This document shows, piece by piece, positions 467-62,630 of a stretch of 64,000 nt of DNA. Each line of letters opens with the position of its first letter. Position 1 is the first letter of the stretch. A program made the position numbers and the translations under genes. This stretch comes from a virus. The stretch is taken from IMG/VR virus record IMGVR_UViG_3300037067_018253; one strand, given 5' to 3'. The notes below the pieces were generated by a model. The model made no database searches. It had not been told where the DNA came from and worked only from the letters and a program-made list of their open reading frames with translations.

Positions 467-1150
467 ATGCAGAACTTCTATAATTCCTTCAGGCCACATC
501 AATTCGGACAAGTCATGGGACAAGATCAATCACTGACAATATTGAAGCGCCAGGCAATCAATCGCAACTTCTCACATAGCTATTTATTCCATGGGCCTAG
601 TGGTACCGGGAAAACGACTACAGCGAGAATACTGGCAATGGCACTATGTTGCGAACACATGGAGGCCGGGGAGCCTTGCGGTAAGTGCATAAACTGCGAG
701 CAAATTATCAAGGGAAGCTACTGGGATGTGGCTGAAATAAATGTGGCTAACTTCCGTGGGGTCGATGACGTGCGGAGCTTATGTTATAAAGCCTACTTAT
801 CGCCATTCGGACCGTATAAAGTGTTCATACTTGATGAAGTGCATATGCTCACCAAAGAGGCCGCTAATTGCCTTCTCAAGTTACTGGAGGAACCACCGGA
901 ACGGTGCGTGTTCATTCTCTGCACAACCGATATCTCAACATTACCAGAGACGCTTTTAAGCCGATGCGCACAGTTCAAATTCAATAAACTGGAGTCCGTG
1001 GATATCCGGCGCAAACTGGACTACGTATGTTCTCAAATCAAAATAGATGCTGATAAAAAGTACCTGGATTTCATAGCGGAAAGCGCACAGGGAAACTGTC
1101 GATCAGCCGAGGGATTACTAGAACAAGTTGTGTGTCTGCAAACAGTATAA
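467..1150 (+). CDS. DNA polymerase III gamma/tau-like clamp-loader AAA+ ATPase (short form)
   Basis: Walker A GPSGTGKTTTARILA, Zn module CGKCINCEQI, Walker B FILDEVHML, sensor/SRC-like LLSRCAQF; collinear with DnaX domains I-II. Confidence 0.8.
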   Translation: MQNFYNSFRPHQFGQVMGQDQSLTILKRQAINRNFSHSYLFHGPSGTGKTTTARILAMALCCEHMEAGEPCGKCINCEQIIKGSYWDVAEINVANFRGVDDVRSLCYKAYLSPFGPYKVFILDEVHMLTKEAANCLLKLLEEPPERCVFILCTTDISTLPETLLSRCAQFKFNKLESVDIRRKLDYVCSQIKIDADKKYLDFIAESAQGNCRSAEGLLEQVVCLQTV

Positions 1151-14103: not shown

Positions 14104-15063
14104 TTAAGCCCACAGTTTTAAAACCGGATGATGCTCTAATACCAGCTTGTCCACTGTCTCCGGCGACTTCGTGTAATATGTGTCTGCAATTTCACCGCTA
14201 CTGGATATTTTCCACCGCAGAAATATGTGGGCGGCCAGTACCGGCTCCATTTTCAACTGCGGTAGCCCTGCAAAGGTATCCCTGATTGTTTCCGCCAGGT
14301 ACCGGCGGAATGAGTGCCAGTTTTTATGATACTGGTTTTCTACACCAGCTTTTTTGCAAATCCTTTTGAACATGGCGAACATGTAGAGTTTATTATGCGG
14401 AGTGTCAAAGTCACAGGCTTTTAAATGTGGCACTAATTCTTTTGCCAGCACCTGCCCGCGCTTCTCTCCGCCTTTCTCTGTATCGACAAAAATAGACATC
14501 CCGTTGTAATCTATGTCCCCATTCCTAACCCGCCACAGCTCGCCGGCGCGCAGACCATATACAGATGCGAGACACAGGTACGCAGTTTCATCAGTAGTGA
14601 GTTTCCCCGACCGAGCAGCTATAACCATGCTCTTAATTTCCCCTGCCGTAATAGATGGCTTGGTTTTATCCGATTCATCCACCCGCGGCATGTCCCTTTT
14701 ACCCCAATCCCACACCGGGGCACGTGTATTAATAGCCTTCAGAATCTTTGCGGTGGCGCTGGGGTCGTCTGGATTTATCTGCCCTATGACTTCCTCCCTC
14801 TCCACCTCATGTGCCGTCCTGGCCGCGTCGTAGACCCTCTTAACAGCACCCATCGCAAATCTAACCGTGGTCGGCGCATAGCCCTCTTTTTCAATTTTCT
14901 TTTTAAAACTGGTGGCCAGCGCTCCATCCCATTTCGATACGGGTATTTTTTCAGTATATTTCAGAAATTTGTCCATCCAGAAGGTCTGCACATTCACAGT
15001 GTCGTGGCTGGAATTACCGAGGCTCTTCAAACGTTGTGCGCGTATTGCTTTAGTTGTAACCAT
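14104..15063 (-). CDS. tyrosine recombinase / phage integrase
   Basis: N-terminal SAM-like domain; LRAGELWRVR box, HSFRRYLAET (HxxR), C-terminal ...DTYYTKSP tyrosine region. Confidence 0.7.
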   Translation of the reverse strand: MVTTKAIRAQRLKSLGNSSHDTVNVQTFWMDKFLKYTEKIPVSKWDGALATSFKKKIEKEGYAPTTVRFAMGAVKRVYDAARTAHEVEREEVIGQINPDDPSATAKILKAINTRAPVWDWGKRDMPRVDESDKTKPSITAGEIKSMVIAARSGKLTTDETAYLCLASVYGLRAGELWRVRNGDIDYNGMSIFVDTEKGGEKRGQVLAKELVPHLKACDFDTPHNKLYMFAMFKRICKKAGVENQYHKNWHSFRRYLAETIRDTFAGLPQLKMEPVLAAHIFLRWKISSSGEIADTYYTKSPETVDKLVLEHHPVLKLWA

Positions 15064-51821: not shown

Positions 51822-52634
51822 GTGAACAGCATGAAATGGATTGGATTAGGAATTGGAATTATACTACTTATCATCACGCTTGTTGGTGGAACTGTAATAA
51901 CTCCAGCAGGACACGTTAATGTAGTATTGAGGTTCGGTAGGGCAATAGGGGTAAAAACCGATGGGCTGTCCTTCAGAATGCCTCTCATCGACAATCTACA
52001 GTTAATGAGTATTCAGACGCAATTATTCGAGGTAGAAAATGCAGAGGCGGCATCAAGGGATATGCAGGACGTTGCTGCCTCTATAGCTATCAACTATAAG
52101 ATAGAGCCTCAATACGCAAGCGATATTTACCGAACCTTGGGAACAGACTACATCAAAAAGATTGCATACCCAGTAGTTCAAGAGGTAGTAAAATCTGTAA
52201 CCGCCAACTACGATGCGCAAGATTTAATACTCAGACGTGAGGACGTAAAAAATGTAATATCGACAGAATTGGGTAGGCGACTGGGAGAACGGCACATAAT
52301 AACGGAAACAATCAATATAACCAATTTTAACTTTAGCGAAGAATTTACTAAATCTATTGAGGCAAAAATGGTAGCGGCACAGAAAGTTATAGAAGCAGAA
52401 AATACACTGCGCCGTATAGAAGTCGAGGCACGACAGGCAGAGCAAAAAGCTAAAGGTGAAGCAGCCGCCGCAATAGCCAGAGCCGAAGGACAATCAGAGG
52501 CTAATAGAATATTGGCTGATAGCCTTACTCCTGAATTGCTACAATATACTTTCATCGATAAGGTTGCCGATCAAGATGTTGACAAGATACTAGTAATACC
52601 TTACGGTTCGCCCATTACATTACCGGCAAACTAA
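51822..52634 (+). CDS. SPFH/Band-7 (HflK/C, prohibitin-like) membrane protein
   Basis: N-terminal TM; SPFH core followed by coiled-coil RIEVEARQAEQKAKGEAAAAIARAEGQSEA. Confidence 0.6.
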   Translation: MNSMKWIGLGIGIILLIITLVGGTVITPAGHVNVVLRFGRAIGVKTDGLSFRMPLIDNLQLMSIQTQLFEVENAEAASRDMQDVAASIAINYKIEPQYASDIYRTLGTDYIKKIAYPVVQEVVKSVTANYDAQDLILRREDVKNVISTELGRRLGERHIITETINITNFNFSEEFTKSIEAKMVAAQKVIEAENTLRRIEVEARQAEQKAKGEAAAAIARAEGQSEANRILADSLTPELLQYTFIDKVADQDVDKILVIPYGSPITLPAN

Positions 52635-52690
52635 AGGAAAGGAGGCAGCAGAAACAGTCCTGAGTAGAGTGGAAATAATGCTTAGTCCAA

Positions 52691-52860
52691 GGCAGAGGGA
52701 TTTTACCCTCCGCCTGATTCGGGGAAGCAAGATGTAGCCTTACCAAGTGTCACACCGACAAAAGAAACGGTCACAGCTTGGAACGCAGAGGAATGAAGGG
52801 TTAGCCCACCCAATGGAGTTTCCCTGAGTCAGATAGAGGGCAAAAGAATGAGAGAGAAAG
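52691..52860 (+). promoter_or_regulatory. structured 5' leader of cassette A (paralog of 60757..60982)
   Basis: Conserved 5' hairpin ggcagagggattttaccctccgcc, conserved 3' end cagatagaggg...agagagaaaATG; the long-range helix differs from copy B but pairing is retained. Confidence 0.4.
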
Positions 52861-53151
52861 ATGAACCATAAGATTGCCAGAGCAGAAGCACTACGCCTAT
52901 CTAAAGAAACAATGGTTAAGGCAGAGCAGGAACGCAAACAACCCGCAATCTCTCACTGGCAAGACAAGCCTGATAAAGTTGGATACTGGTGGCTATTCAA
53001 TGAACGTAAAAATGTTGTATTAGTTATTCATAATATTAATAATCATGGTTTCGAAGTTTTGAATAACATGGGTCTTTTTCCTGTAGAAAATTATGGTGCC
53101 AAGTGGCTTTACATCGAGCAACCAGAAGCTCCAGAAGTAGGAGGGAAATAA
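52861..53151 (+). CDS. cassette A gene 1: hypothetical protein with conserved C-terminal domain
   Basis: Shares HWQDKPDK.GYWW...KWLYIEQPEAPE.GG with 60983..61498. Confidence 0.5.
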   Translation: MNHKIARAEALRLSKETMVKAEQERKQPAISHWQDKPDKVGYWWLFNERKNVVLVIHNINNHGFEVLNNMGLFPVENYGAKWLYIEQPEAPEVGGK

Positions 53152-53417
53152 TGCCTAAAGTATGGAACAAAAGAGATAAAAATACTCCTGTTGATGTTGT
53201 CTATGTAGGCAGACCTAGTAAATGGGGAAATCCTTTTAAGATAGGCAAAGACGGAAACAGAACTGAGGTTATTAACAAATACAGAATGAGAGTTATTAAT
53301 ATTCTCCAATTTACAGATAGTCATTGGCTTGATGAACTTAAAAATAAAGATTTAGTTTGTTGGTGCGTTCCTGCACCTTGCCATGCTGATGTACTGTTAG
53401 AACTTGCTAACAGATAA
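53151..53417 (+). CDS. cassette A gene 2: DUF4326-like protein
   Basis: VVYVGRPSKWGNPF...CWCVPAPCHADVL; the track ORF (53103) is extended by the conserved upstream sequence; probable start is ATG 53151 after ggagggaaata. Confidence 0.5.
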   Translation: MPKVWNKRDKNTPVDVVYVGRPSKWGNPFKIGKDGNRTEVINKYRMRVINILQFTDSHWLDELKNKDLVCWCVPAPCHADVLLELANR

Positions 53418-53645
53418 CCTTGCCATGTGGAAGTGGCAAGCCTGTACCAGCCACCCGAAAGAGCTAGGCTAACCAGTTGGTGTCACCGAGGATTGAGTAG
53501 GGTAGTCCAAGCTGAGTAGTATGACTTGCGACGGCTACTGGCTGGTACAGGAATCAAGACTCAAGGTGCTGGTGTCATAAAGGTAGACCTGAGATAGACG
53601 CAAGCGTGGTTTGAAAAGTGAACCAGCCAGCACCTGGGTGAATAA
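53418..53645 (+). ncRNA. conserved structured element A (paralog of 62017..62235); unclassified
   Basis: Conserved hairpin cttgcca-tgtggaag-tggcaag; 12-bp helix cctgtaccagcc/ggctggtacagg with compensatory change in copy B; conserved aatcaagRctcaaggtgctggt and ccagccagcacc. Confidence 0.4.
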
Positions 53646-53658
53646 ACAAGGAGACAAA

Positions 53659-54087
53659 ATGGATACTACAGAATTATATATAACAATGTGTGAAAAGTCC
53701 CCAGAGATTCAGGGACTTCGCCCAAGGGATGACAACGAATTTATACCTGACTGTTATTTTGGATTGTTTATCTTTGAACGAACCAAGAAACGAGAGAACT
53801 TTCATCTATTTTGTGTTTCAGATGATAGAGTAGTACAGGAACAGTCTATTTGGCTCCCCAGGCAAGACGAGCTTCAGAAGATGATGAAATATTTAAAGTT
53901 AAATCTTCATCTTGAGTATGCTGTTGATTCTGTATGGCTGCTTTATAATGAAACTAGGCAGAATTTTAGGAATGAATACTATGAAAGTTTTCGATCAATG
54001 GAGCAACTCTGGCTTGCCTTTGTTATGAGAAAAAAGTATCACCAAGTATGGGATAATGATAAAAAAGACTGGTTTGAAGAAAAATGA
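53659..54087 (+). CDS. hypothetical protein
   Basis: RBS aaggagacaaaATG; the track ORF begins earlier at 53611. Confidence 0.45.
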   Translation: MDTTELYITMCEKSPEIQGLRPRDDNEFIPDCYFGLFIFERTKKRENFHLFCVSDDRVVQEQSIWLPRQDELQKMMKYLKLNLHLEYAVDSVWLLYNETRQNFRNEYYESFRSMEQLWLAFVMRKKYHQVWDNDKKDWFEEK

Positions 54088-54398
54088 AACTTATAGACAA
54101 AGTAGCAAATTTAGTATGCTGTGATTGCCCTGAAGGGAAAAAGCTCATCAAAAACTGGAGATGTATTCTTGGTTTTAATCCAGTTTTATCAGAGAAGCAT
54201 TGTACTCAGTGTGAAGCTGAAATGAAGAAATATCGCGAGAAAATAAAATGTAGATATTTTAATAGGATATTATCTCAGAAAGAAATTAAAGAGATGTATA
54301 ATGTTGAAAAATACATAATGAGAGAAGAAGATTGCCTGATAATGAAAAGGGGATCGCCGTCAATCATTATCCGGGGCGGTAATATGGAGGTTAAATGA
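54084..54398 (+). CDS. Cys-rich small protein
   Basis: CCDCPEG...CTQCE. Confidence 0.4.
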   Translation: MKLIDKVANLVCCDCPEGKKLIKNWRCILGFNPVLSEKHCTQCEAEMKKYREKIKCRYFNRILSQKEIKEMYNVEKYIMREEDCLIMKRGSPSIIIRGGNMEVK

Positions 54399-55078
54399 GC
54401 GAGTTAATGAGAGAAATACCGTACCTGTTATTAGTGGCCGGTGGCAGCCTGATTGGACTCTGGTGGGCAAACTACTTCTTCGACCACGGTATCAGCCATT
54501 GGAGAAGTCGTAAGGTTGCCCATGCTTTTGGCGGCGGGGCTAGTCTGTTAGCGGCTTTACTATTTGAGTCGTGGGTATTACCAGTGGCGCTTGCCACTAT
54601 GTTCGCACTGATATTGGGCATAGCAAACAGGCTTGCTCCAAAAACCTTCCGTGGTACCGGTGGCTCTGGGCGTAATACCCGGGCGATGTCTGAATTTTGG
54701 TTTGGTTTCTCTACTGCCTTAATCTGGGGTATCGGCTGGGGAGTATTTAATCGCCCCATTGAATCTACCGCCTGCATCCTTATGATGTCGTGGGGAGATG
54801 CTGTAGGGGGATGGGTTCGCGCTTTCCGCTATAATACAGCCACGAAGGGGTGGGAAGGCAGCATGGTTAATCTCTGTGTTTGCATGGTATTGGCGTGGGC
54901 ATTTCTATCACCTTTATGGCTGGGCGTTCTCGCCGCGGTTGGCGCTGCGGCCGCTGAATATGCGTGTGGAGATGTTAGCAAGATAAGGTTCCTGAGGTGG
55001 GCGGATGATAACTTGTTTATACCGGTAGTGGCAGCTTTAATTTACTTCGGTGGACTTTATGCGATAGGGGCACTGTAA
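54395..55078 (+). CDS. CTP-dependent polyprenol (dolichol/phytol) kinase / CdsA-like integral membrane protein
   Basis: Multi-TM; WGDAVGGWVRAFRYNTATKGWEGS matches the G-D-x-x-G...K-G-x-EGS signature of the DolK/DUF92 family. Confidence 0.45.
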   Translation: MSELMREIPYLLLVAGGSLIGLWWANYFFDHGISHWRSRKVAHAFGGGASLLAALLFESWVLPVALATMFALILGIANRLAPKTFRGTGGSGRNTRAMSEFWFGFSTALIWGIGWGVFNRPIESTACILMMSWGDAVGGWVRAFRYNTATKGWEGSMVNLCVCMVLAWAFLSPLWLGVLAAVGAAAAEYACGDVSKIRFLRWADDNLFIPVVAALIYFGGLYAIGAL

Positions 55079-56382
55079 TGCTCAATCCCTGTTATAGTGA
55101 TAATACCTCTGCCTTCTATGAAATGGACTGCCTAGATGGCCTAAAAGATATCCCTGATAATTCTATAGACCTTCTTTGTACGGACCCGCCATATGGACTC
55201 GCATTCATGGGATTAAAATGGGACAAGGCTGTTCCACCAGTAGATACATGGAAACAGTGCCTGCGTGTCCTTAAGCCCGGGGCATTTGGGTTTATAATGT
55301 GCATACCGCGCCAAGATTGTTTATCCCGGATGATTGTTAATCTGCAAGACGCTGGATTTGAAACGGGCTTTACGTCAATGTACCACACCTTTGCCCAAGG
55401 CTTTCCGAAGGCAGAGAATATATCGAAATCCATAGACCGTAAACTCGGGGTACAACGCACTGTGGTAGGCAAGAAAATGGTTGATATTGGTATCCAAAAG
55501 GGTTCTATGCACGCTGGACAGGATACTAATGTGGTTGAGGTTGATGATACCATAGCCACGTCTCCGCAGGCTAAGGCTTTAGACGGGAGCTATACTTATA
55601 ACCCTAAGCCAGCTATTGAAGTCATTTTGGTGGTGATGAAACCGCTTGAAAGGAAAACCTACGTAGAGCAAGCCATGGATAACCAGAAGGGTGTTGTTTG
55701 GTTTGATGATTGCAGGATACCGGTGGACCCGGACGTAGACGATCATCGGCTAGGCGGTAAAGGCACGTGGTCAACTGGAAAGATGTGCAAGAACACCTAT
55801 GAGGGCGGGTATGCAGGGGAAAGAGTTGGCTCATCGCCAGCAGGCAGGTTTACGGCTAATCTACTCGTTTCTAACGATATTCTTAATAATGGCATAGAGT
55901 GGAAATCTGGTAGTAATGTGACCGGGATAGAACCGTCAGTACCAACCAAGAATGTTTACGGTGAATACGAAAGACGTAGTTTCGTTTCCTATGGTGACAC
56001 CGGTTCATTTAGCCGCTTCTTCAGTCTGGATGCATGGTGGAGTAATAAGATAAAAAACTTACCGGAATCAGTACAAAAAACCTTTCCATTCTTTCTGGTG
56101 GCCAAGGCATCTGCAGGCGAGAGGAATAATGGTATTGAGCCAGGCTGTGAAAATCATCATCCATCAGTTAAACCCTTAACTCTTATGAGCTATCTTGTAA
56201 CATTAGGCAGCCGCCCCGGTGACACCATCCTTGAGCCATTCCTTGGTTCCGGTACTACTGCAATCGCATGTAAAATATTAAACCGGAAGTGCATTGCGTT
56301 TGAAATCAGCCACGAATATATTCAAATCGCTATATCCCGTCAGAATCTGATACAGACAAAATTATCAATACCCGCCGTCTAA
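55078..56382 (+). CDS. beta-class DNA amino-methyltransferase (N6A/N4C)
   Basis: Motif IV DPPY (LLCTDPPYGLAF); motif I EPFLGSGTTAIAC; last 7 codons and stop lie inside the IS left end. Confidence 0.7.
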   Translation: MLNPCYSDNTSAFYEMDCLDGLKDIPDNSIDLLCTDPPYGLAFMGLKWDKAVPPVDTWKQCLRVLKPGAFGFIMCIPRQDCLSRMIVNLQDAGFETGFTSMYHTFAQGFPKAENISKSIDRKLGVQRTVVGKKMVDIGIQKGSMHAGQDTNVVEVDDTIATSPQAKALDGSYTYNPKPAIEVILVVMKPLERKTYVEQAMDNQKGVVWFDDCRIPVDPDVDDHRLGGKGTWSTGKMCKNTYEGGYAGERVGSSPAGRFTANLLVSNDILNNGIEWKSGSNVTGIEPSVPTKNVYGEYERRSFVSYGDTGSFSRFFSLDAWWSNKIKNLPESVQKTFPFFLVAKASAGERNNGIEPGCENHHPSVKPLTLMSYLVTLGSRPGDTILEPFLGSGTTAIACKILNRKCIAFEISHEYIQIAISRQNLIQTKLSIPAV

Positions 56383-57597
56383 AACCCCGTATTTCAATAC
56401 TGGGGATACAGACGGCAAAACCCTTTTGGGATTTCTTTTCTATTTCGTTTGTGCTATAATGTAAATAATGCATAAAACTACTTTCCAGTATCGCATATAC
56501 CCGACCAAAAAGCAATTGGCGTTACTGCAAGGCACTCTTAACGAGTGTCGCTGGCTTTACAATCACTTTCTTGAAGAGCGCAAGAATTCCTGGGAACAGA
56601 AACAGGAATCCATTACAATGTACGACCAGATTAAAACATTGCCATCCCTTAAAAAGGATAATGCTTCTTTGGGTATGGTTCATAGCCAGGTACTGCAAGA
56701 TGTGGCAGTACGTATTGATCTGGCGTTTAAGGCTTTCTTCAGGCGTGTCAAGGCCGGAGATAAGCCCGGTTACCCGAGGTTTCGCGGTACCGGCTGGTAT
56801 GATAGTTTCACGTATCCACAAAGTGGCTATTCTATTAGCATGGATACGATCACACTGTCTAAGATTGGAGTAATTAAAGCCGTTATCCACCGACCCATCG
56901 AGGGTAAGATGAAAACCTGTATTGTAAGGCGCACGTCTACCGGTAAATGGTTCGTATCTTTCTCTTGTGAAGTGGAAGATAAACCGCTTCCAGAATCCAA
57001 CGAGGCTGTTGGCATCGATGTTGGATTGGAGTCTTTCGCTACTCTTTCCACCGGGGAATCTATCGCCAATCCACGCTTCTTTAGAACTGATGAAAAGGCG
57101 CTGGCCAAAGCACAAAAGAAAATGTCTAAATACGACAAAGGCACACCTGAGAGACGGAAAGCTCGTAAGGTAGTATCGCATATACATGAGCGAGTTGCCA
57201 ATAGACGTTCTAACTTTGCTCACCAGCTTAGTCGTAGAATCGTAAATAGCTATGGAGTTATCTGTGTAGAAGATATCCAAACCAACCGGATGCTTCATAA
57301 TCATTGTTTGGCTAAATCCATTTCGGATGCAGCTTGGGGTATGTTCTTCGCCTGCCTCGCGTACAAAGCTGAAAATGCTGGTCGCAGGTATAACGCTGGC
57401 AACCCCGCCTACACTACTCAGGATTGCTCCGGGTGCGGACACAGACAGAAGATGGAACTCTCTGAAAGAGTCTATCATTGTCCTTGTTGTCAGCTTACAT
57501 TGCCTCGCGACCATAATGCCTCACTTAATATTCTGGCTATCGGGCTGGATAGCCTGGGTCTTGTCCCTAGAAGCCCTAGTCATAGGGAACAGTCACT
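56360..57597 (+). mobile_element. IS200/IS605-family TnpB-only element (IS1341-like), about 1.24 kb
   Basis: LE with hairpin ccccgtatttcaatactgggg; tnpB; RE with terminal hairpin ccctagtcataggg; LE and RE homologs elsewhere in the window define the ends. Confidence 0.7.
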
Positions 57598-57601
57598 ATG
57601 A
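56468..57601 (+). CDS. tnpB: TnpB (IS605 OrfB) RuvC-like RNA-guided nuclease-family transposase accessory protein
   Basis: N-terminal YRIYPTKKQLALLQ; RuvC-like core; C-terminal Zn-ribbon CSGCGHRQK...CPCCQ. Confidence 0.8.
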   Translation: MHKTTFQYRIYPTKKQLALLQGTLNECRWLYNHFLEERKNSWEQKQESITMYDQIKTLPSLKKDNASLGMVHSQVLQDVAVRIDLAFKAFFRRVKAGDKPGYPRFRGTGWYDSFTYPQSGYSISMDTITLSKIGVIKAVIHRPIEGKMKTCIVRRTSTGKWFVSFSCEVEDKPLPESNEAVGIDVGLESFATLSTGESIANPRFFRTDEKALAKAQKKMSKYDKGTPERRKARKVVSHIHERVANRRSNFAHQLSRRIVNSYGVICVEDIQTNRMLHNHCLAKSISDAAWGMFFACLAYKAENAGRRYNAGNPAYTTQDCSGCGHRQKMELSERVYHCPCCQLTLPRDHNASLNILAIGLDSLGLVPRSPSHREQSL

Positions 57602-58488
57602 ACATCGGCTTGCTTAACCTGGAACCGAAATACAAAAACTTCGCCCTTGAAAAATTGCGCATCTATCATCAGTCTAAGGGTGATTACGCAGAAGATTACT
57701 TCGCCTTGAATCATTACGACAAGGTGTATGTTTCCAGTATATTTACATTCACCGGCAAGTCAATAGTGCCACAGGGGGCTGTGTGTGGTGGATCCGGCTT
57801 CGATTTGACCACTGTTTTGCCACCGGAAGTAGAAGATATACAGCCACATCTTAATTTTGGATTTACCACGCGCGGATGTCCCAATAATTGCCCATTTTGC
57901 ATCGTGAGGCGTAAAGAAGGGGATATTAAGATTGTATCTCGCCTGAAGGATTTATGGAACGGTGTGAAGGGTGCACTGATTACTCTTTATGATAACAATG
58001 TACTGGCGGTAATGGAGCACTTTCAAGAGGTTTGCCGTGATTCGGTAGAGTACCATGTCAAGCTGGATTTTAACCAGGGACTGGACCACCGGAAACTTAC
58101 ACCGGAGATAGTCGGGGTGATGAAGTCCATTAGCCACGTCGAGTATCGTTTCGCATTCGATAGCCCTGCCTATTACAATTCGGTAGAACGTGCCCTTAAA
58201 TTACTTCAAGATGGAGGTATTAACCGCAGCCTTTGGTATGTTTTGGTCGGATTTAACACCACATTTCAAGAGGATTTAGACCGGGTTAATTTCCTCCGGA
58301 GCCGCGGACAACAAGCCTATATCCAAAGATATCAACACCATGCCAACGATTACAAATACATTGCCCTGGCGCAATGGGTTAACCAGCACAATATCTTCTA
58401 TGGCATGACGTGGGAACAATTCCTTGCCACAGACCACAGTAGGAGAAGGGGATATGCTAAATTAGTCCTTGACAATACAGTGCAATAG
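57598..58488 (+). CDS. radical SAM-like protein
   Basis: CxxxCxxC at GCPNNCPFC; start codon abuts the IS right end. Confidence 0.45.
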   Translation: MNIGLLNLEPKYKNFALEKLRIYHQSKGDYAEDYFALNHYDKVYVSSIFTFTGKSIVPQGAVCGGSGFDLTTVLPPEVEDIQPHLNFGFTTRGCPNNCPFCIVRRKEGDIKIVSRLKDLWNGVKGALITLYDNNVLAVMEHFQEVCRDSVEYHVKLDFNQGLDHRKLTPEIVGVMKSISHVEYRFAFDSPAYYNSVERALKLLQDGGINRSLWYVLVGFNTTFQEDLDRVNFLRSRGQQAYIQRYQHHANDYKYIALAQWVNQHNIFYGMTWEQFLATDHSRRRGYAKLVLDNTVQ

Positions 58489-58524
58489 TTGTATGATTAG
58501 TACAAATCCACTCAGGAGTACACT

Positions 58525-58821
58525 TTGATTACGTTCGGGCAAAAACTTCGGCAAATCCGCAAGGAAAAACATCTAAACCAAACCGAAATGGCTAAAATAC
58601 TGGAATGGGATTTCACGTATTTATCCAGACTAGAGAATAATGTGAATCCTCCGTCGATGGAGACAGTTAATAACGTAGTTAATAAACTGAATATAGAACT
58701 ACCACTCTCCGATGAACTCTATGCCTTGGCGCATAAGCTCCCCCCGGACATATCTGAGAAGATTACCATAGAGGTTATCAACATCGTGAGGGAGTTCACA
58801 GAGGGGTCGGATGCAAACTAA
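58525..58821 (+). CDS. XRE-family HTH transcriptional regulator
   Basis: FGQKLRQIRKEKHLNQTEMAKILEWDFTYLSRLENN. Confidence 0.55.
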   Translation: MITFGQKLRQIRKEKHLNQTEMAKILEWDFTYLSRLENNVNPPSMETVNNVVNKLNIELPLSDELYALAHKLPPDISEKITIEVINIVREFTEGSDAN

Positions 58822-59209
58822 AATAATAATCATAGCCTTAATCACATGCGCCGCAATTATAGGAATGATAGTCGGTATAGTATATGGTTCAATTCCAATT
58901 CCAAATAAATATACCACGCAACAATATTTCGATGACCGCGAACAGATGTTCCAATACATTGCCACTCTTCCTATAGAGAATAGCAACATCACGATAACAA
59001 ACATAAATGATAAACTGCCAGCGGAAATCAGGGGTAAATACATCGCTGTACAAATCGATATATCTATTTTATATAACTCTGAAATTAAATTGGATTTACC
59101 GCGTATCAGAGGTGGGGTAAGTACCGGTGTTCCTATTGGAATCGGCACATTCCTATTGGCATTTGTCTTGTTTATGCTTGGTGCAGGGGCCTTTATGCGA
59201 TGGAAATGA
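58811..59209 (+). CDS. small membrane protein (2 TM)
   Basis: Hydrophobic N- and C-terminal segments. Confidence 0.4.
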   Translation: MQTKIIIIALITCAAIIGMIVGIVYGSIPIPNKYTTQQYFDDREQMFQYIATLPIENSNITITNINDKLPAEIRGKYIAVQIDISILYNSEIKLDLPRIRGGVSTGVPIGIGTFLLAFVLFMLGAGAFMRWK

Positions 59210-59421
59210 AAACCATGAAATTGCATACCTGCGCTAATTGCAAGGGGCATAGATTCTATATAGTGATGCTTGAAACACGCATCGCTGAGTTCAGGGAGAA
59301 GAATGATAAACCTGATATAGAAACCAACAAGCAATTTAGGAGTATTCACTGCACTAATTGCGGTGAGTCCGTAATGGGTAGACATCTTAGAATAATGATG
59401 GAGGAGTTGAAAATAAAGTGA
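59200..59421 (+). CDS. Zn-ribbon protein
   Basis: CANCKGH...CTNCGE. Confidence 0.4.
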   Translation: MEMKTMKLHTCANCKGHRFYIVMLETRIAEFREKNDKPDIETNKQFRSIHCTNCGESVMGRHLRIMMEELKIK

Positions 59422-60398
59422 AGATTGGCACAGTACCATTGGGGGTAAAATTAAAGGCGTGGTTTTGGACCCTTGAGAGATTCTTCGCGACACCATTCTT
59501 TGGAGCCGCCCTGTTTATCGGCGTGGCGCTTTCCGGTGGTTCCATGACAAGTCTGACAACGTGGTTGGCTTTTATCGCCGGCATATCCTTGATGTGCGCC
59601 GGACATTGCCACAACAGTTTCTTGGATTATTCATGGACTGGCCTGGACAAGGGTGAAGTCGAGGACCGGAGTGCCGAGAAATCTTACTGCGGCGGGCAGA
59701 ATCTTATTGAGGCCGGGGTAGTAAGTTCGCGGGAATGCGCTTTTGTGGGATTAGTATGGGATGCGATCGGGATAGGGATATTGGTGTGGATGACGATACA
59801 CTTCCATCTCTCTGTGATGATGATTTACCTGGCCATCATGAGCGCAATTATCCCAATTGCCTACTCCGCAGGGAAATTTACTACCTGGGGACACGAACTG
59901 TCATTAGGAATATCCTGTGGACCATTACCAGTCCTGATTGGAGCTTTTGCCGTTAATCCAAGTCCACCCGTGATTAATCTGTTGCTGGTTTCAATAATAC
60001 CGGCTGCTATACTAAGTTTCGCCGGACTGGCCATAGATGAGTTCCCGGACGCATTAGCGAATCTTAAAAAAGGTGTCAAGAGTTTGCCTTATAAAGTCTG
60101 GCAATATTCGACTATAGAGATAGGGATAATACCGGGGGGCATCGAGGGTTCAAAGTCAATGGAAACACTGCGCTGGTATGTGACCGGCTGGCTGTTGATG
60201 GTATTTATCTACCATGTATTCCTGATTAACATTGGAGTTCTGGCGCCGATGACTGGAATAGCTTTTATAACACTACCAATGTTGCTGGCTTCGCAGGTGT
60301 TCCTTAAGGCCAATTTCGACAAAGCCGCAGTGTGGATAGTGGCGCTAGGGGCAGCATATCTAATACTTCTGCTCGCCGGGCAAATAATCGGAGGATAA
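59418..60398 (+). CDS. UbiA-superfamily-like polytopic prenyltransferase
   Basis: 8-9 TM; Asp-rich segments NSFLDYSWTGLD and IDEFPDA in loop positions expected for UbiA motifs. Confidence 0.4.
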   Translation: MKIGTVPLGVKLKAWFWTLERFFATPFFGAALFIGVALSGGSMTSLTTWLAFIAGISLMCAGHCHNSFLDYSWTGLDKGEVEDRSAEKSYCGGQNLIEAGVVSSRECAFVGLVWDAIGIGILVWMTIHFHLSVMMIYLAIMSAIIPIAYSAGKFTTWGHELSLGISCGPLPVLIGAFAVNPSPPVINLLLVSIIPAAILSFAGLAIDEFPDALANLKKGVKSLPYKVWQYSTIEIGIIPGGIEGSKSMETLRWYVTGWLLMVFIYHVFLINIGVLAPMTGIAFITLPMLLASQVFLKANFDKAAVWIVALGAAYLILLLAGQIIGG

Positions 60399-60399
60399 G

Positions 60400-60747
60400 A
60401 TGAAACTATCTAAAGCTGCAATTGAGTTGATTGAAAAAGCGCTGGATACTGGACATGCTTGTCGGGTGCATAATGGGCGACCGGTTATAGGGGGCAATGG
60501 GGGAGTTGTAGAAATACAGGTACTGCCTAAAAATATGATAACGGCAAAAACTCCGTTTCCTTTATTTATGGCTGATGAGAACGAGCCAAGTATAATAAGA
60601 GTGCAAGTAGATAAAAGGGATTTTGAATTTATTACAGTAGCGGAGTTTCCTGCTCGATATAGTCATAAAATATGGCTTGATGGTCTGTTACTCCATAGCG
60701 AGGATAACAGTGAGATGAGTGGAATGACGGGCTATTTTCCAGGATAA
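60400..60747 (+). CDS. hypothetical protein
   Basis: ORF. Confidence 0.4.
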   Translation: MKLSKAAIELIEKALDTGHACRVHNGRPVIGGNGGVVEIQVLPKNMITAKTPFPLFMADENEPSIIRVQVDKRDFEFITVAEFPARYSHKIWLDGLLLHSEDNSEMSGMTGYFPG

Positions 60748-60756
60748 ATAATCGGT

Positions 60757-60982
60757 GGCAGAGGGATTTTACCCTCCGCCTGGTGGGTTGGAACTCGGGA
60801 GAGACTTTATATAAAGGGCTATCATCGTGGGAAACAAAGCGATTAACTATCGTGGCGTAGAACCACATAAGCACCGATAAAACTGGCGGTGACGCAGTTC
60901 GGGCGGAGGTACAGGTCATCCCCAATATATAGCCTGTACAGGGAGTCCAGCCTACCAGATAGAGGGTAAGAAGGAGAGAGAA
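60757..60982 (+). promoter_or_regulatory. structured 5' leader of cassette B
   Basis: Same conserved 5' hairpin and 3' end as leader A; 12-bp long-range helix ctggtgggttgg/ccagcctaccag (two G-U pairs). Confidence 0.4.
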
Positions 60983-61498
60983 ATGAAAGATTATCGAGTA
61001 AGTTGTTGGACAATCATAGGGGCGGAATCAGAAAAAGAGGCAAGAGAATCATTTTGTCGAGATATAGACGAAAGAAATGTTGATGTCGAACTTGAAGGAC
61101 AAACACTACATGATAATACATGGAACTGCAAAAATGACTGTATTTATATAACGCCTGATGGATGTTATATAGATGATAAGATGCCGAATCCCAGGGGTAC
61201 TTTGTCTTGTGAGTGTGAGAACGGTAGCTACCCCCTTTGCCCACGTTACGTACAGGCTGAAAAAGCCAATCAAAACAATCACTGGCAAGACAAGCCGGAC
61301 AAAGCTGGATACTGGTGGAGATACCATCCAGCGTATCGTATTCCTCAGCTAACAGAGATATTTGGGGAAAAGGAACTACTTGTTAATTACGCAGGCATTC
61401 TTATAGTTTCAGTAGACACAGATTTAAAAGAATATTATCCCGACTCCAAGTGGCTTTACATCGAGCAACCAGAAGCACCAGAAGCAGGAGGGGAATAG
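60983..61498 (+). CDS. cassette B gene 1 (paralog of 52861..53151)
   Basis: Shared C-terminal domain; distinct Cys-rich N-terminal half. Confidence 0.5.
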   Translation: MKDYRVSCWTIIGAESEKEARESFCRDIDERNVDVELEGQTLHDNTWNCKNDCIYITPDGCYIDDKMPNPRGTLSCECENGSYPLCPRYVQAEKANQNNHWQDKPDKAGYWWRYHPAYRIPQLTEIFGEKELLVNYAGILIVSVDTDLKEYYPDSKWLYIEQPEAPEAGGE

Positions 61499-61503
61499 TA
61501 AAT

Positions 61504-62007
61504 ATGAGAGCTGATATGCCAACTATTGTCTGTCTTTGTGGTTCTACACGCTTCGGTGAGGCGTTTAGGGAAGCACAGTTTCAGGAAACTATGAACGGTA
61601 AAATAGTGCTGACCATAGGTTGCAATATGAAATCTGATGCTGACTTATTTGGGCACATGGCAGAACCAGCCATACAGGTTATCAAGAAGCAACTGGATGA
61701 ACTTCATAAACGCAAGATAGACCTAGCCGATGAAATCTTAATCTTGAATGTGAATAGCTACATTGGAGAATCAACACTGAGTGAACTCGAATATGCAAAA
61801 GCACACGGTAAACGAATTAGATTTATTGAGGAAATAGGCGCACCTGGAATCCGTGACCCTGAAAGTATCTGTGATGATTTTAAACCCATTGGTGGAGTTT
61901 ACGGAAACTCTAACGTTGGGGAGTGCGAATCTGATGGTCATTACAAGTGTCTTGATTGTGTGTGTCGTGAGCCATTAACTAAGTATGATTTTCCAGAGGA
62001 AAGCTAA
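61504..62007 (+). CDS. cassette B gene 2: hypothetical protein
   Basis: MRADMPTIVCLCGSTRFGEAF...; the track ORF (61450) is extended by the conserved upstream sequence. Confidence 0.45.
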   Translation: MRADMPTIVCLCGSTRFGEAFREAQFQETMNGKIVLTIGCNMKSDADLFGHMAEPAIQVIKKQLDELHKRKIDLADEILILNVNSYIGESTLSELEYAKAHGKRIRFIEEIGAPGIRDPESICDDFKPIGGVYGNSNVGECESDGHYKCLDCVCREPLTKYDFPEES

Positions 62008-62016
62008 TTAACAATT

Positions 62017-62235
62017 AAATAACCTTGCCATGTGGAAGTGGCAAGCCTGTATCAGCCACCCTACGGGGCTTGTAGTAGCGATGGTTTTGACCTGACGTAA
62101 GACGAGGCTACTGGCTGATGCAGGAATCAAGGCTCAAGGTGCTGGTAACGTATACGCTTGTCTCGTGTAGTGTTTCAAGTGTCTACGGAAGTGGTTAAAA
62201 GCCAGCCAGCACCAAAGCCTAAAAGCATCGGGCGA
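62017..62235 (+). ncRNA. conserved structured element B
   Basis: See element A; cctgtatcagcc/ggctgatgcagg (C-G to U-A compensatory change plus G-U). Confidence 0.4.
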
Positions 62236-62370
62236 ATAGATGAAAAGTAAAGTCAGTGGTAGGTGAGGAGTACCACGCAGGAGAAATGGCGGGAACACCC
62301 TAACGTCACCTGCAATGCTAGTGCAAGACTAGCCACCCGACCAAAGCCTAAAGAGAGAGGGAAAAGCTAA

Positions 62371-62630
62371 ATGACTTCAACGGAATTATTCATGGCAGCA
62401 ATCGATAAGTGGGGGAGGGCGTTACAACTTGTGATGGTTTGCGAGGAAACAGCCGAACTTCAAAAAGAAGTCTGCAAAATCATACGGGGTGACTGGTCAA
62501 ACAACCGGATGTTAAAATTGCAGACGTTGAATTGACTCTCTCCCAACTCAAACTCATGACCGGAACCAGCGAAGAAGTAGAGCGTCAAAAGAAGGTTAAA
62601 CTTGAACGCCTGGGAGCAGAAGCTAAATGA
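62371..62630 (+). pseudogene. MazG-like NTP pyrophosphohydrolase, frameshifted
   Basis: Frame 1 gives AAIDKWGRALQL...EETAELQKEV and stops at 62535; the frame continuing IADVELTLSQLKLMTG...KLERLGAEAK completes the MazG pattern. Confidence 0.4.

Follow-up and report, generated by a model that had tools for sequence, protein, structure and literature searches.

What are the conserved non-coding sequences that bracket two paralogous gene cassettes in a viral genome, and do they belong to the genes that they flank? The question is raised by the IMG/VR virus record IMGVR_UViG_3300037067_018253, of which a stretch of 64,000 nucleotides was analysed (the window). Cassette A (52691–53634) and cassette B (60757–62213) have the same layout, as an original prediction made from the letters of the window had described: a 5’ leader, gene 1, gene 2 and a 3’ element, all on the plus strand. 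The prediction also held that the flanks are structured RNAs, and in this it was right – they are structured RNAs under selection that match no catalogued class, on the evidence of Rfam 15 and of covariation across a family. It further treated leader and 3’ element as the cassette’s own ends, which did not hold, as the 3’ element is independent and is found elsewhere without relatives of gene 1. Within the 3’ element lies a three-way junction (3WJ), a conserved structured RNA that is a new family of a known general kind, outside the curated Rfam 15.

Six blocks of 26–52 nt are common to the two cassettes, with 86–100% identity, and the stretches between them do not align; such common blocks never arise by chance. 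Everything that had been noted of the sequences of the leaders, the gene 1 ends and the 3’ elements was correct on direct check. The same phage is present in independent ENA and JGI sample assemblies at 99.9–100% identity, so the features of the cassettes are not assembly artefacts.

The 3’ elements (53414–53634 in A, 62019–62213 in B) are composite, consisting of a hairpin, H1, the 3WJ of 80–110 nt, a linker, and a tRNA-like minihelix domain, H3. Compared with dinucleotide shuffles, they fold with z = -4.2 (A) and -3.9 (B). The predicted common sequence CTTGCCATGTGGAAGTGGCAAG is present exactly twice in the 64 kb, at 53419 and 62024, with none expected by chance. H1 of cassette A (53419–53440) is CTTGCCA-TGTGGAAG-TGGCAAG, and H1 of cassette B (62024–62045) is an exact duplicate. 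The 3WJ core of A (53441–53551) has helices P1 (CCTGTACCAGCC/GGCTGGTACAGG), P2 (CCC-GAAA-GAG) and P3 (AGTAGG...GCTACT); the core of B (62046–62124) has P1 CCTGTATCAGCC/GGCTGATGCAGG, P2 CCC-TACG-GGG and P3 AGTAGC...GCTACT. P1 is the 12-bp helix for which compensatory change had been claimed, and the change is there: between A and B one C-G pair is replaced by U-A, and one U-A pair by U.G. A and B alone are weak evidence of covariation; homologs elsewhere provide strong evidence.

These homologs were found with covariance models and sequence patterns. A model of the whole 3’ element (R1) gave no further match in the window or near distant homologs of gene 1, and matched one of 85 IMG/VR loci with DUF4326 or deoxyribosyltransferase genes, only over the domain enclosed by the 12-bp helix. 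A gapped pattern of the blocks common to A, B and this match found 18 loci in viral contigs, 14 of them genuine and 10 distinct; L139, L143, L146 and L149 (loci are referred to by number) were coding false positives, judged from their sequence. The same pattern found 24 loci in GTDB genomes, of which one is real, L166 in a metagenome-assembled genome (MAG) of Dehalococcoidia. Twenty-two others are GC-rich and read as coding (a recurring GGCTACTGGCTG = ..GYWL..), judged from sequence without calling open reading frames (ORFs), and L162 has a long ORF on the opposite strand and scores 14.7 bits only. A second pattern, with the 3’ half left free, added two contigs, one with two tandem copies. A last relaxed pattern gave no new members, so the family is small in IMG/VR. 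A second model (R2) describes 18 copies, 2 in the window and 16 elsewhere (E ≤ 1e-3) in 14 loci, namely 13 IMG/VR viral contigs and the Dehalococcoidia MAG. Both window copies qualify as members, with 60.9 bits (E = 1.2e-12) for A and 85.5 bits for B. It is a small family, restricted in environment, and Dehalococcoidia appear to be among its hosts.

The junction has one form throughout. P1, with inner pairs CAGCC/GGCUG, closes it and is followed by an A, by P2 (CCC-loop-GGG), by a C with a variable joining strand that often ends in UUG, and by P3 (AGUAGC...GCUACU), whose 3’ strand, GCUACU, adjoins that of P1 without a gap. Across the 18 distinct copies 94.3% of cells pair, and in P1 both partners have changed at six of the eight pairs. 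Covariation scores 0.176, the mean of column shuffles being 0.077; 0 of 500 shuffles reach the observed value, which falls to 0.01–0.04 when the partners are slid by 1–3 columns. RNAalifold recovers P1 and P2 unaided. The two members retrieved with an unconstrained 3’ half keep GGCUACUGGC, and their inner P1 pairs become UAGCC/GGCUA and AUGCC/GGCAU. There are 11 G.U against four A.C combinations in P1. The P2 loop is GAAA in seven copies and UUCG in two, with UACG, AUAGC and longer loops also found. GAAA and UUCG are stable tetraloops specific to RNA; their exchange is typical of RNA hairpins and has meaning only when read along the sense strand of the genes.

L136, L144 and L150, which have different flanking genes, repeat the interior of copy B without a single base change; these four differ in the P2 loop (UACG, AUAGC, UUCG) and in the outer pairs of P1. 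Likewise, L176 and L138 differ only in P1, in the loop of P2 and at one position of the P3 hairpin. From the sequences, this is the pattern expected of a structural RNA gene under strong sequence constraint. Two loci have copies in tandem. In L175 (705–931) two junctions follow one another directly, the second diverged (P1 CCAGCU/AGCUGG), and the domain upstream of them has a hairpin AGAGGATTTATCCTC and then AATAACC, resembling the leader hairpin and the start of the 3’ element in the window. L133 (minus strand) has a non-coding region of ~740 nt around 2849–2935 with two tandem composite RNA units, the first of which ends in AAAAAGGAGAATCAAAAC, resembling a ribosome-binding site (RBS), with no ORF behind it, as if a gene had been lost.

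The 3WJ is always intergenic and in the same sense as the flanking genes. In L136, L144 and L150 it begins 2 nt past a stop codon and ends 33–38 nt before the next start, and in L140 it ends 32 nt before the gene that precedes a PD-(D/E)XK nuclease. Other copies sit among transcription signals. L137 has a perfect promoter (12/12, TTGACA-17-TATAAT), a terminator, the 3WJ, another terminator that begins 5 nt past P1, and an HNH endonuclease gene; L145 has an 11/12 promoter, the 3WJ, a terminator, and the small terminase and portal genes. L176 has the 3WJ, a terminator and then a new promoter, with a PD-(D/E)XK gene ~2 kb downstream. In L138 the 3WJ is followed by a terminator, read by eye (the scan called no promoter or terminator on the sense strand), and by an ORF with an intein. 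This ORF (515–2911) encodes 798 aa with a LAGLIDADG/Hint intein and has no terminase Pfam match; we read it as the large subunit of the terminase.

Several copies are neighbors of other RNAs. A tRNA lies 44 nt downstream of the 3WJ in L134. Just upstream of the 3WJ in L166, ARAGORN called an atypical tRNA (1037–1124, minus strand; tRNA-???, with an odd anticodon loop), the acceptor of which, UGCUGG/CCAGCA, is repeated in the immediately downstream tRNA-like helix next to the 3WJ. The Rfam DUF3800-VII RNA (RF02967, 61 bits) lies 70 nt downstream of the 3WJ at L055 287–377 (= L148 9605–9695, minus strand), where a viral contig of 41.6 kb ends; a hairpin, CAAGAGCYAGAC-AAAGACGAGATAA-GTCTGGCRAAG, is present three times in this region. 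None of the other 3WJ loci has a relative of gene 1. A homolog of gene 2B is found 1.4 kb away in one of them and a DUF4326 gene 1.6 kb away in another. Co-occurrence with DUF4326-like genes, which had been suggested, was not borne out – the RNA is present at one of 80 DUF4326 loci, at that distance of 1.6 kb. Neither RNA element is present at the distant homologs of gene 1 (L038, L043–L046). Since the other loci have no gene 1 relative and the distant gene 1 homologs lack the RNA, the 3WJ is independent of the cassette.

The tRNA-like neighbors have a counterpart within the cassettes, the linker and H3 domain (53552–53634 in A, 62125–62213 in B). In A the linker is AATCAAGACTCAA and the closing helix is GGTGCTGG (53565–53572) / CCAGCACC (53627–53634), with an inner hairpin, TGGTT...AACCA, that abuts the 3’ strand of the closing helix. 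In B the linker is AATCAAGGCTCAA, the closing helix is again GGTGCTGG (62138–62145) / CCAGCACC (62206–62213), and the inner hairpin is TGGTT-AAA-AGCCA. The domain has the form UGCUGG-UGU ... hairpin ... G-CCAGCA. Its helix, GGUGCUGG/CCAGCACC, is 3’ of the 3WJ in the window, and its counterparts Pa/Pb are 5’ of it in L137, L140, L141, L166 and L175, where they read (C/G)UUGCUGG-UGU ... ACCGA-G-CCAGCAA(G/C). The outer, closing pairs covary (GG/CC, CU/AG, GU/AC), and so does the inner hairpin (UGGUU/AACCA, UGGUU/AGCCA, UCGGU/ACCGA, UCGGA/UCCGA). A single base separates the 3’ strand of the inner hairpin from the closing helix, as acceptor and T arm are arranged in a tRNA, and the 5’ box of L166, UGCUGGUG, recurs exactly as the 5’ end of the adjoining tRNA-like gene. 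We read H3 as a putative tRNA-derived or tRNA-like domain; H1 (CUUGCCA/UGGCAAG) may be a shrunken copy of the same type of helix.

Exact scans of IMG/VR for H1 and for the linker gave no matches. The linker pattern found 34 loci in metagenomes (L004–L037), all chance matches, several with the coding-like context ATGATCCAGCAGGAATCAAGGCTCAAGGTCGCCGACAAC, which we take to be the start of rplN. A descriptor search for leader, H1, linker and H3, together with short-word blastn, covered ~100 loci and gave chance-level matches only. No complementarity between leader and tail is conserved in both cassettes.

The genes between the RNAs differ more than their flanks. Gene 1A (52861–53151) encodes 96 aa with a DUF551-like small phage domain, W.DKPDK.GYWW ... 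KWLYIEQPEAPE, and gene 1B (60983–61498) encodes 171 aa with the same DUF551-like domain at the C-terminus and a Cys-rich insert. Both products end in KWLYIEQPEAPE.GG, as had been noted. There was no Pfam match for gene 1, DUF551 included, even at E ≤ 10. A profile search of 1.8 billion representative proteins gave 15 representatives, a small family marked by W.DKPDKAGWWW ... KWLYIEQPEAP, and a word-indexed profile search added proteins of Dehalococcoides prophages, one of which has the UniRef name DUF551; this one name and the resemblance of the motif are the link to DUF551. A pattern search of JGI metagenomes for the gene 1 protein gave 152 matches, none of them real; blastn in distant mode against INPHARED phages found no match for either cassette, and tblastn against phages found none for gene 1B. 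By its sequence, gene 1 looks to be an ordinary small phage accessory domain.

Gene 2A (53151–53417) encodes an 88-aa DUF4326 protein (Pfam PF14216, E = 1.4e-24), and its stop codon is inside the conserved ATAACC that opens the 3’ element. Gene 2B (61504–62007) encodes a 167-aa protein similar to nucleoside 2-deoxyribosyltransferases; it has homologs of 64% identity in IMG/VR, and its tblastn matches include a gene of Anabaena phage A-1(L) annotated ‘deoxyribosyltransferase’. A DUF4326-like gene 2 is therefore found in A and not in B. The overlap that had been described for genes 1 and 2 is also confined to A, where the start of gene 2A overlaps the stop of gene 1A (TAATG, ATG at 53151); the ATG of gene 2B is 5 nt past the gene 1B stop. 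The last 13 codons of gene 1 (53099–53150 and 61446–61497; 1338–1376 in L038) are 90–94% identical in DNA, even against a homolog with 39% protein identity. This stretch holds the AGGAGG ribosome-binding site of gene 2, inside ...PE.GG., and may be conserved as a linker for translational coupling and recombination; overlapping ORFs that start with GTG at 53103 and 61450 were set aside as by-products of the conserved DNA. In a representative protein library, P0006 has the gene 1 domain fused to the C-terminus of a DUF4326 protein (...KWLRIEQPEAPIPCHADVLLELANK...), so the adjacency of gene 1 and DUF4326 exists in a more distant relative.

A third cassette is chimeric. L001, a 911-bp Logan contig from another sample, has a gene 1 that is B-like at its N-terminus (83% DNA identity) and A-like at its C-terminus (97%), a new 45-aa ORF as gene 2, an A-type 3’ element (99%; H1 differs by one loop change), and a leader almost wholly different in sequence from those of A and B. 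The new ORF makes gene 2 exchangeable cargo. From these sequences, recombination takes place inside gene 1, at the junction of genes 1 and 2 (AGGAGG), and at ATAACC. As the chimeric cassette shows, the RNA modules are joints at which gene 2 and the halves of gene 1 are swapped between phages; being repeated and conserved, they serve as homology for this.

The leader is a separate element from the 3WJ. Its GC-rich 5’ hairpin, GGCAGAGGGATTTTACCCTCCGCC, has exactly two copies in the 64 kb (52691 and 60757; shuffles give an expectation of 0), and an exact scan of IMG/VR for it gave no matches. In A, hairpin 1 (52691–52714) is GGCAGAGGG-ATTTTA-CCCTCCGCC, with 9 bp, one A.C mismatch and -13.7 kcal/mol, and the hairpin of B (60757–60780) is an exact duplicate. 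A long-range helix follows. Helix 2 of A pairs 52714–52724 with 52822–52832 (CTGATTCGGGG/CCCTGAGTCAG; 11 bp, 2 G.U, -17.0 kcal/mol) around a variable insert of ~97 nt, and is used by the minimum-free-energy fold of leader A; helix 2 of B pairs 60780–60791 with 60947–60958 (CTGGTGGGTTGG/CCAGCCTACCAG; 12 bp, 2 G.U, -20.5 kcal/mol) around an insert of ~155 nt. The stability of neither is equalled by any of 2000 shuffles, and the whole leaders fold with z = -3.5 (A) and -3.0 (B) relative to dinucleotide shuffles. The L001 leader has the same architecture in new sequences: hairpin GGCAGGA-UUAAUC-UCCUGCC, helix CUUCGGG/CCCGAAG, and then GAUAGGGG. The prediction that this helix stays paired despite wholly different sequence in A and B was correct, and L001 is a further, independent case of compensation – the three leaders pair in helix 2 with three different sequences.

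Upstream of both gene 1 start codons is CAGATAGAGGG and then a purine-rich RBS. This 3’ segment of the leader (ATAGAGGGCAAAAGAA plus the RBS at 52833–52860 in A; ATAGAGGGTAAGAAGG plus the RBS at 60959–60982 in B) can also pair with hairpin 1. In A it can pair with the loop and 3’ strand (-9.8 kcal/mol, one A.C mismatch); in B the alternative helix is 10 bp long, and its partner in hairpin 1 is TTTTACCCTC (-14.6 kcal/mol, equalled by 29 of 2000 shuffles). The minimum-free-energy folds of B and L001 skip hairpin 1 and use this helix, which is UUUUACCCUC:GAGGGUAAGA in B and UUAAUCUCCU:AGGGGAUUAA in L001, A having the same with one A.C mismatch. Hairpin 1 and the alternative helix are mutually exclusive, and the latter stacks on helix 2 to form an interrupted rod of ~22 bp that ends a few bases 5’ of the Shine-Dalgarno sequence. 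The leader is thus a predicted two-state element; it may act as a switch of translation or as a site of RNase III-type processing, or the alternative may be an intermediate in folding. An AAATAAT box common to A and B lies 4–12 nt 5’ of the leader hairpin. In B it scores as a weak promoter (9/12, 60724–60752, 5’ of hairpin 1), so the cassette may have its own promoter.

The elements had been said to resemble no known class of RNA, and comparison with Rfam 15 agrees. No match in the window reached the gathering thresholds, and between 52400 and 62600 at E ≤ 10 there was only a chance snoRNA match, away from the elements; at the homologous loci the only matches were the DUF3800-VII RNA and tRNA, both beside the 3WJ. 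Specific classes were rejected in turn. For tRNA or tmRNA, ARAGORN called none in the window and, across 15 loci, none that coincides with the motif; a T loop of the GTTC type is lacking, and P1 is 5–13 bp. A group I intron is contradicted by the upstream genes, which end in stops (52634, 60747), and by downstream genes unrelated to them and to each other; its core (RF00028) has no match at E ≤ 10, and the tail helices are nested and not in the P7-P3'-P8 pseudoknot order. Group II introns, permuted introns and retrons were considered and dropped. The alternative of duplicated sigma70 promoters or terminators, foreseen in the prediction, is not supported by the scan: the numbers of both do not exceed those expected from shuffles, 60724–60752 is the one site close to the blocks, and no sense-strand terminator was found. 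For integron attC sites, the boundaries GGCAGAGGG... and ...CCAGCACC have no GTTRRRY and the integrase-family gene is ~38 kb away. For insertion sequences of the IS200/IS605 group or palindrome-associated transposable elements (PATEs), the leader and tail hairpins are unrelated and the left flanks have no common motif (TCCAA and TCGGT). For a diversity-generating retroelement, no reverse transcriptase is among the annotated or tested genes, and the mismatches in the 52-nt gene 1 block are T/A, T/C and A/G. Finally, the idea that leader and tail are one RNA split by the ORFs draws on the short resemblance in L175, which is possibly chance.

The window has two copies of a mosaic accessory module, a DUF551-like gene 1 and an exchangeable gene 2, between two different RNA modules. 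Our preferred reading, held tentatively and with somewhat less than even confidence, is that the 3WJ is a stable small RNA and the leader a separate two-state element governing the gene 1–gene 2 message. The leader would control the processing, stability or translation of that message. The 3’ element is a self-contained RNA module and not the cassette’s own tail; its 3WJ would be transcribed with the operon and give rise to a stable small RNA, with ends set by the flanking tRNA-like and hairpin structures here and by the RNA’s own promoter and terminator in other phages. In this phage the RNA would be either released from the operon transcript or protected within it. A bolder version, which we think rather unlikely, makes the 3WJ a new class of phage RNA, either a tRNA-shaped decoy or cofactor in anti-defence or an RNA-only antiterminator, and the leader a second new regulatory RNA. 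As a decoy it would be matured by tRNA-processing enzymes and would counter host defences that target tRNA or RNA; as an antiterminator it would be structurally unrelated to put and would gate packaging and recombination operons.

Several points weigh against the stable small RNA, for which termini, processing and stability are all predicted. No promoter or terminator flanks the 3’ element in the parts of the window scanned (52400–54000 and 60500–62600). Neither ARAGORN nor the Rfam tRNA model recognizes the 3WJ or the tRNA-like module, and a P1 of 5–13 bp is unlike a tRNA acceptor stem. The structure itself is uneven in its support: the alignment was fitted to the model, P2 and P3 are backed by conservation and tetraloop swaps without compensatory changes, and P3 is the least certain helix, as RNAalifold did not recover it in the chosen register. 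Most members were retrieved through a pattern in which CAGCCACCC and GGCTACTGGCTG (21 bases) were constant, so the invariance of these sequences is partly ascertainment. As for the leader, it is known from three sequences only, and its alternative helix is moderately better than shuffles (97, 29 and 7 of 2000). Lastly, positions at operon starts and beside terminators fit a cis-acting element of transcription control equally well.

This last point leads to the main rival, in which the 3WJ is a leader acting in cis on elongation or termination of the next operon, as a put-like antiterminator or the site of an antiterminator protein; on its way through a long operon, RNA polymerase would be re-armed by each of the two window copies. 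We hold this to be doubtful, with a real chance of being right. It fits the place of the 3WJ between promoters and terminators ahead of packaging genes: the RNA is at operon starts downstream of strong sigma70-like promoters and 5–190 nt upstream of the intrinsic terminators that precede packaging genes (L137, L145, L138). It also precedes recombination modules in L140 and L148, the PD-(D/E)XK gene of L176 being beyond a terminator and a new promoter. The constant sense, whichever gene follows, the several copies per genome (the window; the tandem in L175), and the highly conserved loops and junctions, as for a surface that contacts polymerase or a protein, would all be accounted for. What bears on a put-type role in particular is positional, a promoter upstream and a terminator downstream in L137 and L145. 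However, the terminator and fresh promoter of L176 make the RNA look like a closed transcription unit, there is no downstream terminator in the scanned parts of the window, a three-way junction is unlike the two put stem-loops, and the nearness to tRNAs and tRNA-like modules would be unexplained. Less likely is that leader and 3’ element are untranslated regions of the cassette itself, stabilizing, processing and tuning the message and travelling with it. Both elements are kept in A and B, the 3’ element directly follows three different versions of gene 2, and in A and L001 the gene 2 stop is inside the conserved ATAACC; 3’ exonucleases could be halted by such strong folds, and the leader in its alternative state has an interrupted duplex of ~22 bp beside the RBS, resembling an RNase III substrate. 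The 3WJ core, though, is found at 14 other loci without gene 1, often upstream of genes or between promoter and terminator, distant gene 1 homologs lack such flanks, and the almost entirely different leader of L001 means that leader and tail are not one travelling unit.

The conserved blocks could instead act as DNA, as the ends of mobile cassettes (like PATEs, miniature inverted-repeat transposable elements or attC sites, or sites for an integrase or TnpB), so that the pairing would be that of terminal inverted repeats and not of RNA helices. Variable cargo between conserved ends, the chimeric third cassette, and near-identical 3WJ interiors scattered sporadically among unrelated phages would be expected of such elements; an 11-nt direct repeat, CAGCAAGCCTG, flanks the core in L140, TnpB is between the cassettes and an integrase is in the window, and several contigs end near the motif. 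We regard this as improbable, as both the tetraloops (GNRA and UUCG) and the surplus of G.U relative to A.C are specific to one strand and to RNA, and the orientation is always sense to the genes. Nor are the leader and tail hairpins related, as the two ends of IS200/IS605 elements are; a GTTRRRY core is lacking, the boundaries of A and B show no duplicated target, and most other phages have one copy per fetched locus. About as improbable, and if anything a shade more so, is a catalytic or ligand-sensing 3WJ – an intercistronic self-cleaving ribozyme, or a riboswitch aptamer with the downstream terminator or RBS as expression platform. A multi-stem junction with conserved junction and loop nucleotides in diverse contexts, sense and intergenic, would suit either, as would the terminator directly after P1 in L137 and the RBS 32–38 nt after P1 in L136, L140, L144 and L150. 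But the downstream genes are unrelated, unlike those of metabolite riboswitches, P3 is the same in its entirety from phage to phage, a rarity among aptamers, no similarity to an Rfam ribozyme or riboswitch was found at E ≤ 10, and the closest orphan motifs that precede terminators did not self-cleave when tested (PMC5737381). Very improbable, finally, is that the blocks are leftovers of duplication kept alike by gene conversion, with incidental pairings. There are just two copies in the window and the blocks are short (26–52 nt), as this would have it; however, the compensatory changes in homologs at 14 other loci, the fold z-scores of -3 to -6 (elements of A, B and L001), and the three unrelated sequences of helix 2, all of which pair, are against it, and the family-wide covariation already contradicts it.

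The region 3’ of cassette B may have traces of further exchange. A non-coding stretch, read directly from the sequence, extends from the cassette to a MazG-like gene (62214–62370, plus strand). It has a truncated 5’ remnant of a 3WJ, TAGCCACCCGACC (62330–62342), which resembles the 5’ stub of a third copy, and a leader-like RBS, AGAGAGAGGGAAAAGCTAAATG. A 12-nt direct repeat, CCAAAGCCTAAA, at 62212–62223 and 62341–62352 brackets 117 nt, and 62212–62352 may be a recombination scar. The gene that follows, for a MazG-like pyrophosphohydrolase (62371–62630, plus strand), is split by a frameshift, with the N-terminal 54 aa in one frame and the conserved C-terminal helix (KIADVELTLSQLKLM...KLERL) in the +2 frame. 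An independent JGI assembly of this region is essentially identical (99.95%, one mismatch in 2,005 nt, position unchecked), so the split is probably a pseudogene or a programmed frameshift and not an assembly error.

The contig as a whole is phage-like, with a GC content of ~45%. The window codes for a clamp-loader-like ATPase, an ArdC-like protein and a tyrosine integrase (14104–15063), the only integrase-family gene in it; the minus strand has a long run of unannotated structural genes. From ~46 kb onward, the plus strand has an accessory region encoding ParA, two N6/N4 methyltransferases, a PAPS-reductase-like protein, a Band_7 protein, TnpB and a helix-turn-helix protein. TnpB (IS605 OrfB / Cas12f-like; 56468–57601, plus strand) is between the cassettes, has no repeats in common with them and no TnpA was seen; its stop overlaps the ATG of a radical-SAM-like gene (57598–58488). 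At L039 6487–7542, which corresponds to ~63469 in the window to just beyond its end, is a chalcone-synthase/KAS-III-like protein of 351 aa with the type III polyketide synthase fold, an unusual phage cargo.

Phage genomes are rich in intergenic ‘dark matter’; many orphan phage RNA motifs already exist, and few phage RNAs have known roles. The 3WJ adds a compact RNA of ~80–110 nt with clear covariation, found at operon starts, before terminase and recombination genes, and beside tRNAs. It also comes with a natural experiment, as one phage has this RNA within an operon and others have it as a unit running from promoter to terminator. If it were an antitermination RNA or an anti-defence tRNA mimic, a new mechanism would be added; even if it were a processing or stability module, the chimeras show RNA modules as joints for swapping DUF4326 and deoxyribosyltransferase-like genes.

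Known phage systems share some of these features. The species 1 and 2 RNAs of T4 are small stable RNAs embedded in phage tRNA clusters. Like them and like tRNAs, the 3WJ copies are sense genes between cistrons with conserved interiors and variable flanks. The tRNA-like domain resembles tRNAs in that the 3’ strand of its closing helix continues from an internal hairpin (the acceptor/T-arm topology), its UGCUGG-UG matches the 5’ end of the neighboring tRNA-like gene in L166, and a tRNA follows in L134. Unlike tRNAs, there is no D- or T-loop consensus and no CCA context, and P1 has 5–13 bp. The putL and putR sites of HK022 are two stem-loops of ~70 nt at the divergent early promoters, and act on their own transcript, 3’ of promoters and 5’ of terminators. 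They too are two paralogous structured RNAs per phage genome that are independent of the genes that follow; the RNAs described here are three-way junctions, with both copies on one strand, 8.6 kb apart, and no terminators nearby in the window. The PeSL (promoter early stem-loop) cassettes of T4-type phages are reportedly mobile regulatory cassettes consisting of an early promoter and one stem-loop. Short repeated regulatory sequences flanking small accessory ORFs in a plastic part of the genome and serving as joints for modular recombination are common to both (the chimeric L001 cassette is an example), whereas the flanks here are multi-helix RNAs of 170–220 nt and no convincing promoter was found.

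Closer in kind are the orphan RNA motifs of phages and prophages described by Weinberg et al. in 2017, DUF3800-I to XI, skipping-rope and drum (PMC5737381). These are often followed by a Rho-independent terminator, are rarely classic 5’ untranslated-region riboswitches, and their function is not known (PMC5737381). The 3WJ is likewise a conserved multi-helix RNA in phage-like regions (PMC5737381); it differs in that it matches none of their models and that no DUF3800 gene is among the nearby proteins tested. Fremin, Bhatt and Kyrpides in 2023 predicted candidate structured RNAs (csRNAs) from IMG/VR, 10,006 of them unnamed (PMC10690425). Like the RNAs described here, these are intergenic phage RNAs that covary, and many resemble tRNAs or precede genes (PMC10690425).

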